NCBI GenBank assembly: GCA_963712115.1
Contig: CAVQGX010000003.1
Coordinates: 1-64,000 of the forward strand
Direction: 5' to 3'
DNA from: an uncultured delta proteobacterium
GTDB lineage: Bacteria > Desulfobacterota > Syntrophobacteria > BM002
DNA length: 64,000 nt
The position numbers and the translations under genes are program-made. Under the pieces are notes generated by a model. The model was not told the origin of the DNA, searched no databases, and saw nothing but the letters and a program-made list of their open reading frames with translations. Positions 22,518 through 24,580 of this stretch are shown here, in pieces (position 1 is the stretch's first letter; each line of letters begins with the position of its first letter).

Positions 22518-22700
22518 TTAGTCTACAACCTTGATATCCCCGGCGTATCTGCCCACCGTGGCATCATCAACACAGCTATTGAGCTCTTCTTCGCTGGCAT
22601 CTTTCGGGTGCATCAAGGAATCTAATGGACATAGCCAATCATTTCCAGCCGCATCCTTAACCCGTACGAAAGGTTTTCCCCGAACTGATTCGTCTGACAT
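22518..22700 (-). CDS. small hypothetical protein
   Basis: 60-aa ORF with strong AAAGGAGAG SD; DAAGNDWLCP..CVDD. Confidence 0.7.
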   Translation of the reverse strand: MSDESVRGKPFVRVKDAAGNDWLCPLDSLMHPKDASEEELNSCVDDATVGRYAGDIKVVD

Positions 22701-23044
22701 TTTTCTCTCCTTTCTCTAAACCTCTAGCTACCGAATAATCTGAAAAAAGATTTTTTTTGTTTTCCCAGATATCTAGGTTAAAAGTGCCCAAGAAACTAAC
22801 CTAACTCGATGCTTAAGTTGAAATCGTAAAATTTTCCATTTAGGTTAGGTTTAAGCTAAGTCACGCGATCTCTGCTGTCAACACAACTCATCAGCTCAGC
22901 CAATTTTATTTTCCTTTTCGTAACCTGAGCTGGCAGAATGCATCTGATGATTTAGTAAAGTAATCTCTCCAAAATCAACAAGTTCATTGCAAGCTCCTTT
23001 GTGAGTTCTTAGATTAGGTTTTACCCATAAAAAGGAAAATTATT

Positions 23045-24580
23045 ATGTCAAGAATAGTTATTCACTACATTTTTGCTGTGACAGTCTTGACTCTCTACGG
23101 CGGGCAGGTCTGACCCTTCATGGAAACACTACCCCCCGTGCTTTTGGGGGTAAGCCTTCTCATTCCCTTCATGGCGGCTCTGGCTGTGCGCAGGCCCCTT
23201 GAGAACCGCTTCGTAGTCTCCCAACCCCGGATTGTCCAGCCCAGAAAGCAGTTTTACCTTGATTTTACCCTGTGCCTGGCAGCTGGCTCTACGGTAGCAG
23301 TTTACAACTCGCTAGCTCATGGCTTCCCTGCTCCCAGTGGTATCAGCCTATTGTTGGGTTGTACCGTCGTCGGCTTCTTCACTGGTATGGATATGGCCTT
23401 AGCCAGAGAGCGCTCAGTCATACACGCTGCCCTTGCTGAAGACAAGGTACTACCGCCTCCAAAGCGGCTGTATTCCATGACTCGTAAATTCTCCCTGGTT
23501 GCCCTGACCGCCACCTTATTCGTTTCTCTAATCCTCGGGATGGTAATTGCCAGAGATGTAGTCTGGCTTGCCGAGATCGAACAGAGCGGTATGTCGGTCA
23601 TCCAGGCCCAATTGTCTGTCATGCGTGAAGTCCTCTTCATTATGGCCGTGCTCCTGGTGGCAATCGTAAATTTGATAATTTCCTATTCCAAAAATCTTAA
23701 GCTCCTATTTCAGAACGAAACCACCGTCCTGGAGAGGGTTAGCCAGGGAGACCTTTCCAAATTGGTGCCGGTGGCTACTAATGACGAATTTGGCTTTATC
23801 GCCGGACACACCAATACTATGATTGAAGGGCTGAGACATCGCACTCAGTTGATAACCGCCCTCAAGTTGGCCGAGGAGGTGCAGCAGAACCTCTTGCCGA
23901 GTGAGCCCCCCTCACTCCCTGGATTTGACATTGCCGGCACAAGCAAGTATTGCGACGAAACTGGCGGTGACTATTACGATTACTTCGAGTTTTCAAACGG
24001 CCACTTGAGAATTGTGGTGGCCGACGCCTCCGAGCACGGTGTGGGCGCAGCCATGCTCATGACCACGGTTAGGGCCCTTCTGCGGCAGAGGGTGACCATG
24101 GGGGGCGACATCGCTCGAATTGTCTCAGACGTCAACCTAGAGCTTGCCAGAGATGTTGGGGGTAGCGGACGGTTCATGACCATGTTTTTCCTGGAAATCG
24201 AACCTGAAAGTAACACATTGAATTGGGTTCGCGCCGGTCACGAACCGGCAGTCCTTTATAACTCTAGAGAGGATAGTTTCCTCGAACTTACCGGGGAAGG
24301 TATGGCCCTCGGGGTAGTCGAGCACTTGGAATTCCAGAAGTATACCCACCAGGGCTGGACTCCGGGCAGCATAATTGTGGTGGGCACCGACGGCATCCGA
24401 GAAGCCCAAAATGAGGACGGAGAAATGTTCGGCTCAAATCGATTCCGAGAGGCCATACGTAGTCATGCCACCGAGTCTGCCGAAGAGATCCAGAACCGTA
24501 TTATAGAGGAGCTCCAAATCTTTCAGGGAGAGGCGCCTCAAGAAGACGACATAACCCTGGTTGTGGTGAAACTTTTATAG
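23045..24580 (+). CDS. membrane HAMP-SpoIIE/PP2C phosphatase, candidate selenoprotein (TGA at 23111-23113)
   Basis: SD and ATG at 23045 in frame with the 23120 ORF through one TGA; GGDYYD, ADASEHG, TDG and DDIT motifs. Confidence 0.8.
23130..23152 (+). promoter_or_regulatory. candidate bacterial SECIS hairpin
   Basis: TACCCCC-cgtgctttt-GGGGGTA; loop starts 23 nt after the TGA, with G at loop position 2. Confidence 0.6.

Follow-up and report, generated by a model that had tools for sequence, protein, structure and literature searches.

In this work we analysed a 64,000-nucleotide stretch of DNA from an uncultured delta proteobacterium (the window, meaning this whole stretch; all coordinates are window positions), and in it a putative sensor phosphatase gene on the + strand that is interrupted by one in-frame TGA. 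We propose, with a probability of about 0.92, that UGA 23 of this gene encodes selenocysteine (Sec), that a hairpin in the RNA directs its insertion, and that the product is a 511-residue inner-membrane signalling protein composed of a MASE10 sensor domain, a HAMP-like linker and a PP2C phosphatase domain. Comparison of sequences between genomes bears out the reading frame, the Sec/Cys pairing at residue 23, the constraint on the RNA, the outward topology of the sensor and the occurrence of SelA, SelB and SelD. The features of the gene are as follows (SD, Shine–Dalgarno; SECIS, selenocysteine insertion sequence).

23032–23036, + strand: SD-like AAGGA, 8 nt before the proposed true start (from the sequence)
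23045–24580, + strand: full coding sequence, 511 codons plus stop, with the predicted Sec at codon 23 (from translation, domain profile and genome search)
23045–23110, + strand: codons 1–22, a cytoplasmic MSR and then transmembrane helix 1, ending in YGGQV (conserved in 20 copies)
23111–23113, + strand: TGA, codon 23, predicted selenocysteine U23 (TGA in 26 copies, Cys in homologues)
23120–23122, + strand: ATG, codon 26, an internal Met wrongly taken as the start by gene callers (not conserved, no SD)
23130–23152, + strand: predicted SECIS hairpin, with 5' arm 23130–23136, loop 23137–23145 (CGUGCUUUU) and 3' arm 23146–23152
23063–23638, + strand: MASE10 six-helix membrane sensor domain, residues 7–198 (PF20970, AlphaFold2 models)
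23723–23836, + strand: HAMP-like linker, residues 227–264 (PF00672 below threshold, helical in the model)
23996–24574, + strand: PP2C/SpoIIE serine phosphatase domain, residues 318–510 (PF07228)

The gene at 23045–24580 encodes a six-helix MASE10 membrane sensor followed by a HAMP-like linker and a PP2C/SpoIIE phosphatase. The AAGGA, the ATG at 23045, the TGA at codon 23 and the in-frame join to an open reading frame (ORF) of 486 amino acids (AA), all pointed out in an earlier, sequence-only reading of this DNA, are confirmed. With TGA translated as U, codons 1–22 read MSRIVIHYIFAVTVLTLYGGQV and are followed by U-PFMETL..., the CCC TTC after the TGA leading to ATG 23120 in frame with the ORF 23120–24580; no other stop lies within the 511 codons. 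Profile matches were scored with and without the upstream part. The 486-AA ORF alone matches MASE10 with 101.8 bits, over profile positions 21–186 only, whereas the protein read through the TGA scores 139 bits (cut-off 27) and completes the profile at 1–186. The 22 upstream residues are thus the missing first helix of the domain; that this peptide is conserved had been singled out beforehand as decisive for the proposal, and it is both conserved and part of the MASE10 profile. The phosphatase match is the same in either form (SpoIIE/PP2C 152.8 bits for the ORF alone; PF07228 152.6 bits after read-through, cut-off 25, profile 2–191 of 192), and by sequence its nearest solved chain is 6k4e_A, 'Putative serine phosphatase' (E 6.5e-14), which we take to be SiaA of Pseudomonas aeruginosa. 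The HAMP match stays under its cut-off of 25 (21.2 bits for the ORF alone, 21.1 for the read-through protein); helices 185–233 and 248–283 lie there in the model, and the match reaches 30.2 bits in one relative (L041).

The TGA is conserved at this place. In a six-frame search of 22 genomes of the source organism's order, 19 full-length matches and one fragment at a contig end were found in 16 genomes (56–100% identity), each with one TGA, and no stop-free full-length copy was found; the remaining matches were unrelated PP2C proteins that aligned only from about residue 163 on. In all 20 copies the TGA occupies the identical column, within L-T-x-Y-G-G-Q-V-TGA-P-F, after a conserved N-terminus of 21–22 residues. 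The column is also TGA in six more distant copies belonging to other families of the phylum, which brings the total to 26 copies in 22 genomes. A 66% identical fragment with two TGAs and a scrambled upstream frame (L025, G017 C70:8849–9742) was excluded from these counts; decay of the copy or an artefact of assembly may explain it. The source genome (G000) has three copies, namely that of the window, a 98% identical one on contig C29 (C29:25700–27232, L022) and a 68% identical paralogue on contig C30. The flanks of the C29 copy are also nearly identical to those of the window gene (SRPBCC 98.6%, small ORF 96.7%, NUDIX 100%), and this copy may come from a second strain binned in rather than from duplication, because the assembly has 5.99% contamination.

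Where TGA is absent from the column, the residue is almost always Cys. A Pfam MASE10 search over 401 genomes sampled from the phylum located the domain 14 times, in 11 genomes; ten of these places have one TGA, and the other four, which are free of stops, all have TGT or TGC at the column (YGGKVCP, YGGSVCP, YGARVCP and YGTRVCP). In a full HMMER scan, 1.84 billion representatives were searched with the 200-residue domain, its TGA read as Cys, and 318 clusters were obtained at E ≤ 0.001. Among the best 150 of these 318, on which residues were counted, 100 cover the column and 99 of them have Cys; of the 50 that do not cover it, 22 begin exactly at query residue 26, and about a fifth of the 150 (31) begin just after the Sec column. 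C23 is also invariant in an alignment of 64 sequences (A1), together with E248 and N257, and in a domain alignment of 40 sequences (A3), together with P24 and D171. The central claim of the sequence-only reading, that the gene hides a selenoprotein whose Sec immediately follows the first transmembrane helix of a sensor phosphatase, is supported by these comparisons and survives the tests named against it: homologues have Cys or TGA at this column and neither Trp nor Arg, the upstream peptide is conserved, SelA, SelB and SelD are encoded in the genome, and the TGA recurs in too many copies to be a sequencing error.

The distribution of Sec and Cys follows the sensor. TGA copies with a PP2C output are those of the order and three further ones (L038–L040), and three others (L042–L044) have a class III cyclase; the genomic Cys copies carry HD-GYP or cyclase outputs. 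Among the best 150 of the 318 clusters, the Cys forms comprise 40 cyclases, 16 HD-GYP proteins, 8 PP2C proteins, 8 others and 27 fragments, and the forms that start just after the column comprise 12 PP2C proteins and 19 fragments. As MASE10–cyclase proteins have Sec too, Sec belongs to the sensor domain and not to the output. In a quick maximum-likelihood tree of 120 domain sequences, for which truncated rows were taken, with no DNA as confirmation, to be presumptive Sec forms, the window sequence falls within a starred clade of 26 Sec rows and one Cys row, and the cyclase Sec forms make up a separate starred clade; the starred branches force at least two Cys/Sec switches, and the minimum over the whole tree is seven.

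A predicted SECIS hairpin, UACCCCC / CGUGCUUUU / GGGGGUA, begins 16 nt downstream of the UGA. The published constraints on bacterial SECIS elements are a loop of 3–9 nt, a stem of 4–16 bp, a G in the first two loop positions, a distance of 16–37 nt from the UGA and a folding energy of at most −7.5 kcal/mol (PMC13188914, Fig. 2 legend). The 7-bp hairpin, whose loop position and early loop G were noted in the sequence-only reading as fitting the bacterial SECIS model, agrees with all of them (7-bp stem, 9-nt loop starting CGU with G at position 2, UGA–loop distance 23 nt, −10.6 kcal/mol), its loop being at the upper size limit of the bacterial consensus model. A strict SECIS scan was passed by 22 of 23 phosphatase-type TGA copies and by none of the four Cys copies. 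Across the 22 distinct hairpin sequences, 98.1% of the cells are paired, against 40–71% when the 3' arm is slid, and one stem pair varies among them (AU 10, GC 6, GU 6). The strongest evidence for an RNA element comes from synonymous differences, counted in 18 copies over pairs of codons for the same residue: their frequency is 0.516 gene-wide and 0.136 at codons 30–37, which is the lowest 8-codon window and coincides with the hairpin, and codons 30, 31, 32 and 35 show none in 120–153 pairs. Support for the predicted element thus comes from comparison between genomes and not from folding energy. The three cyclase-type TGA copies (YGAQV-TGA-PFLEGLG) have a different and less clearly defined GC-rich hairpin about 11 nt downstream, which, compared with the SECIS consensus, needs a bulge or an 11-nt loop.

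Several observations weigh against the proposed explanation of this gene. One representative among the 100 that cover the column (P0132) has Asp there; this protein of 232 AA reads YGSQV-D-KMMAALPP, its downstream AALPP resembles the Sec clade, and a miscall or frameshift in a Sec form may account for it. One phosphatase-type copy (L015) narrowly misses the strict SECIS scan, at −6.8 kcal/mol, and all three cyclase-type TGA copies fail it, with hairpins that differ from one another and z-scores near 0. Only one stem pair covaries, because the stem is nearly invariant, and the single-sequence folding energy of the window hairpin is not better than that of shuffled sequences (z −0.42), such z-scores being uninformative. 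SelA is present in all nine other genomes with MASE10 copies, six with TGA copies and three with Cys copies, so that the form found in a genome cannot be predicted from the machinery; SelA is necessary for the Sec form and does not discriminate between the two. The tRNA-Sec gene was not found in the source assembly by Rfam, by ARAGORN or by blastn with the tRNA-Sec of a relative, and it was not found either in one (G014) of the five relatives searched. No STAS or RsbW gene adjoins the window gene, whose neighbours encode an SRPBCC protein, a 60-AA ORF without family and a NUDIX protein. Finally, selenium at residue 23 is itself a prediction from sequence comparison.

The missing tRNA-Sec bears on what is inserted at the UGA. 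Of the four sel genes tied to the proposal by the sequence-only reading, three were found in the source genome, all over their cut-offs: SelA (PF03841, 518.2 bits), SelB (TIGR00475, 395.4 bits) and SelD (TIGR00476, 381.8 bits; C22:26789–27709, L048). The fourth, selC, which encodes tRNA-Sec, was not found in the assembly. SelD itself contains one in-frame TGA, as in many Sec-rich anaerobes. The best Rfam tRNA-Sec matches (45.8 and 44.3 bits, cut-off 47) are both tRNA-Ser genes, and ARAGORN lists 43 tRNAs in the source assembly, none of them tRNA-SeC. Four of the five relatives searched have a tRNA-Sec of about 75 bits, including one with the closest orthologue of the window gene, and ARAGORN calls the gene of one relative as tRNA-SeC with anticodon tca. 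The source assembly is 94.4% complete, in 70 contigs, and its missing tRNA-Sec gene is probably unassembled. Decoding of the UGA as Cys or another standard residue, by a Cys-charged tRNA-Sec-like tRNA or by near-cognate read-through, would fit both the failure to find a canonical tRNA-Sec and the Cys of the homologues, and Sec-to-Cys recoding was reportedly described in Deltaproteobacteria by Mukai and colleagues in 2016. We give this explanation a slim chance, as the genome has SelA and SelD, which make Sec-tRNA, as its SelD contains a TGA, and as a canonical tRNA-Sec accompanies the same TGA in four of five relatives while the source assembly is incomplete.

The position of the start bears on whether the UGA is read at all. 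If it were a true stop, a leader of 22 residues would be followed by a sensor made from ATG 23120 as a 486-AA protein without helix 1. Gene callers read the gene in this way: in the protein database all 120 homologues among the matches listed (62–93% identical) cover at most 95% of the query, most being 486 or 480 AA long, and those that are named carry the labels SpoIIE-family or RsbU phosphatase. ATG 23120 is moreover in frame and only 6 nt after the TGA. However, across the 20 copies of the order codon 26 is ATG in 11 and Leu in nine (CTC 3, CTG 5, TTA 1), and an SD-like motif lies 3–12 nt before the upstream start in 16 of the 20 and before codon 26 in none, in agreement with the earlier remark that ATG 23120 has no clear SD. 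On this comparison ATG 23120 lacks conservation as a start. Over most of codons 2–20 synonymous sites change at normal rates (0.33–0.75; 0.12 at codon 10) and the residues are conserved, a pattern that marks this stretch as translated and under purifying selection. The Cys-form homologues run continuously through this point, the 22 residues complete the MASE10 profile with a gain of 37 bits, and a protein started at Met26 would have five helices and lack the family's invariant residue. Termination at the TGA is therefore scarcely credible.

Contigs assembled by Logan from RNA libraries, which carry neither strand nor transcript ends and whose uncovered stretches are not evidence, also cross the codon. 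In two runs, from estuary and marine sediment, contigs span the TGA with 23111–23113 unchanged (X15 record 1 covers 22900–23166, including the upstream ATG, and X17 record 12 covers 23070–23179), and both have A>G at 23131, a stem position that varies among genomes. These contigs are a weak hint of transcription, since carry-over of DNA is possible. An error of sequencing or assembly at the TGA, or a mutation that inactivated a gene now in decay, which one window alone cannot exclude in an assembly with 5.99% contamination and a second, 98% identical copy, is a negligible possibility: this TGA is shared by 26 copies spread over 22 genomes, an artefact shared at 56–88% identity is not credible, contigs from independent runs bridge the TGA unchanged, no other stop interrupts the 511 codons, and purifying selection acts on both sides.

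If residue 23 is Sec, as we propose, its position in the sensor suggests what it may do. In AlphaFold2 models (pLDDT, the predicted local distance difference test, 91.1 for the whole protein and 89.3 for the domain), the domain has six long helices (2–22, 31–58, 62–92, 96–132, 145–181 and 185–233), and residue 23 lies in the short turn between helices 1 and 2, the least confident stretch of the model (about 64–65). Among 100 family members the mean number of Lys plus Arg is 0.04 and 0.05 in loops 1 and 3, and 3.28 and 4.87 in loops 2 and 4, a distribution which places the N-terminus, the HAMP-like linker and the phosphatase in the cytoplasm and indicates that the Sec faces the periplasm. The conserved residues cluster on this periplasmic face (Y18, G19, V22, C23 and P24; F94, P95, S98 and G99; D171), C23 being conserved in 99/100, S98 in 96/100 and D171 in 88/91.

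Two other ideas about residue 23 were rejected. Cys residues in later helices (FTLC, LLGC) had been put forward as possible partners of the Sec; they are not family features, since no second Cys column is conserved in the 100 rows (column 106, that of LLGC, has Cys in 23 and every other column in fewer than 15%), and an intramolecular partner was accordingly dropped as a property of the family. A lipoprotein signal peptide with a lipidated Sec is likewise contradicted: position −1 is Val in 96/100 and is preceded by G-Q, and G-Q-V does not match the lipobox. The conserved Tyr8 and Tyr18 of helix 1 and its confident packing in the models also oppose it. Solved structures offer no mechanistic lead. 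With the MASE10 domain model as query, Foldseek found nothing in the PDB at E ≤ 0.001 (best E 0.14, template modelling score at most 0.38), and the best VIA-align match among 48,161 chains was a designed helical pore (Z 8.5), the others being generic helical bundles, at scores too low to be meaningful where proteins are helical; these results do not imply that the fold is new.

The mechanism that we envisage is as follows. UGA 23 would be decoded as Sec by SelB and tRNA-Sec under the direction of the hairpin 23130–23152, and Sec would take the place of the single invariant Cys of MASE10, in the motif YGGxV-C/U-PF at the periplasmic end of helix 1. The selenol would be the sensing group of the receptor and might react with a periplasmic or membrane-borne oxidant, an electrophile, a sulfur species or a soft metal; redox or soft-ligand sensing, or redox or metal sensing as the sequence-only reading had it, is an inference. 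As no second Cys is conserved, the likeliest mode of action for the selenol would be on its own or in a pair formed between the two subunits of a dimer. This change could be relayed through the HAMP-like linker and switch the phosphatase, whose substrate is probably a STAS-type partner-switching protein in its phosphorylated state, with its gene at another place in the genome.

Control of partner switching had been suggested for this phosphatase, and the window locus, which has no adjoining STAS/RsbW pair, does not support it; the neighbourhood of the window gene yields no functional link. The source genome has three STAS_2 matches as well as RsbW-like kinases, and such a pair adjoins the Sec-containing C30 paralogue (C30:45343–46875; L056 1841–3373, − strand). 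The operon divergent from this paralogue encodes a fused ATP-binding cassette (ABC) transporter, a cyclic nucleotide (cNMP)-binding protein, an RsbW-like kinase (HATPase_c_2), a STAS protein (C30:50817–51146; L056 7318–7647) and an FHA protein, and together with the paralogue it looks like a partner-switching module. The 60-AA ORF of the window, at 22518–22700 on the − strand, lies divergently upstream of the sensor gene; it has no Pfam match and contains two Cys. It was recovered in eight of 18 related loci searched, with 90–97% protein identity against 77–88% for the sensor, and is thus more conserved than the sensor.

Nearly all bacterial selenoproteins are redox enzymes, and the pairing of Sec with Cys at one position is an accepted sign that the Cys is reactive, usually redox-active. 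By this token residue 23 is the likely chemistry-bearing site of MASE10. A further proposal, which we advance tentatively and with the odds somewhat against it, is that MASE10 is a chalcogen-based signal receptor: its outward Cys or Sec would be oxidised, persulfidated or metal-bound, possibly forming a diselenide across the dimer, and would drive the three kinds of output, Cys having changed to Sec at least twice independently in anaerobic sediment bacteria. This would be the first Sec known in the perception of a signal rather than in catalysis, and it would give a testable class of ligands for orphan MASE10 receptors, including those of the Vibrio cholerae VC1295 type. With Sec at the sole invariant position of a transmembrane receptor domain, the use of selenium would extend to signal perception. 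There is also a consequence for annotation, as the homologues among the matches listed are recorded without helix 1 and the key residue, and such records could be corrected.

With the TGA almost certainly encoding Sec at the one invariant Cys position of the sensor, the family counts as a selenoprotein family not yet listed, its role lying in signalling and not in enzymatic catalysis, although a supplementary list may hold it. A check of novelty against published selenoprotein lists had been proposed in the sequence-only reading. Word searches of main texts returned no mention of a signalling or membrane-sensor selenoprotein (PMC13188914, PMC12013277, PMC13326102, PMC1976440, PMC1794560 and bioRxiv 10.1101/2022.07.06.499078), the deep-Sep/BSepDB supplementary lists and subscription journals being outside this search. 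A 2026 review of prokaryotic selenoproteomes, including its family table, has no wording on phosphatase, sensor, cyclase, signal transduction, histidine kinase or transmembrane, and NCBIfam has no model for the sensor-phosphatase family.

Thiol-based membrane redox sensors such as ArcB and RegB have a single reactive Cys per subunit, act as dimers and switch their output on oxidation. The analogy with MASE10 may hold at the level of principle; they are histidine kinases with a cytoplasmic Cys and no Sec, and they are not homologous to MASE10. MASE10 itself (PF20970) was defined by Galperin and Chou, with VC1295 of Vibrio cholerae as an example, and that source states that no member has been characterised and that Cys, Ser and Trp are conserved in the periplasmic loops (bioRxiv 10.1101/2021.11.05.467447), with which the conserved residues of the periplasmic face found here agree. 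The window protein resembles the Cys-form proteins of the same source in having a six-helix N-terminal sensor, which is followed by HAMP in those proteins and by a HAMP-like linker with a sub-threshold match here, the family's outputs being HD-GYP, adenylate/guanylate cyclase and PP2C; it differs from them in that the conserved Cys is a TGA with a predicted SECIS hairpin, and the available part of that text does not mention selenocysteine. One earlier link between Sec and a signalling output of this kind, the only one that we found, comes from Zhang and Gladyshev (2008; PMC2398784), who describe the fusion of a Sec-peroxiredoxin with a PP2C-type phosphatase. There too a Sec module is joined to a PP2C-type phosphatase, but that Sec belongs to a soluble peroxiredoxin enzyme domain and the phosphatase to a distant PP2C subgroup, whereas here the predicted Sec lies in a loop of a transmembrane sensor without a thioredoxin-fold domain or a CxxU-type motif. 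In the window protein, as in SiaA and RsbU, a membrane anchor and a HAMP-like linker precede the PP2C domain (NCBIfam NF038263, SiaA, 56.4 bits over residues 304–508); unlike SiaA, this protein scores far under the equivalog cut-off (700 bits), has another sensor domain and has no partner genes next to it. The C30 paralogue, which adjoins an RsbW-like kinase and a STAS protein, is in this respect like the partner-switching phosphatases. In conclusion, recoding follows the standard mechanism and takes place in a known protein domain; the novelty lies in where the predicted Sec is placed and in its probable role.

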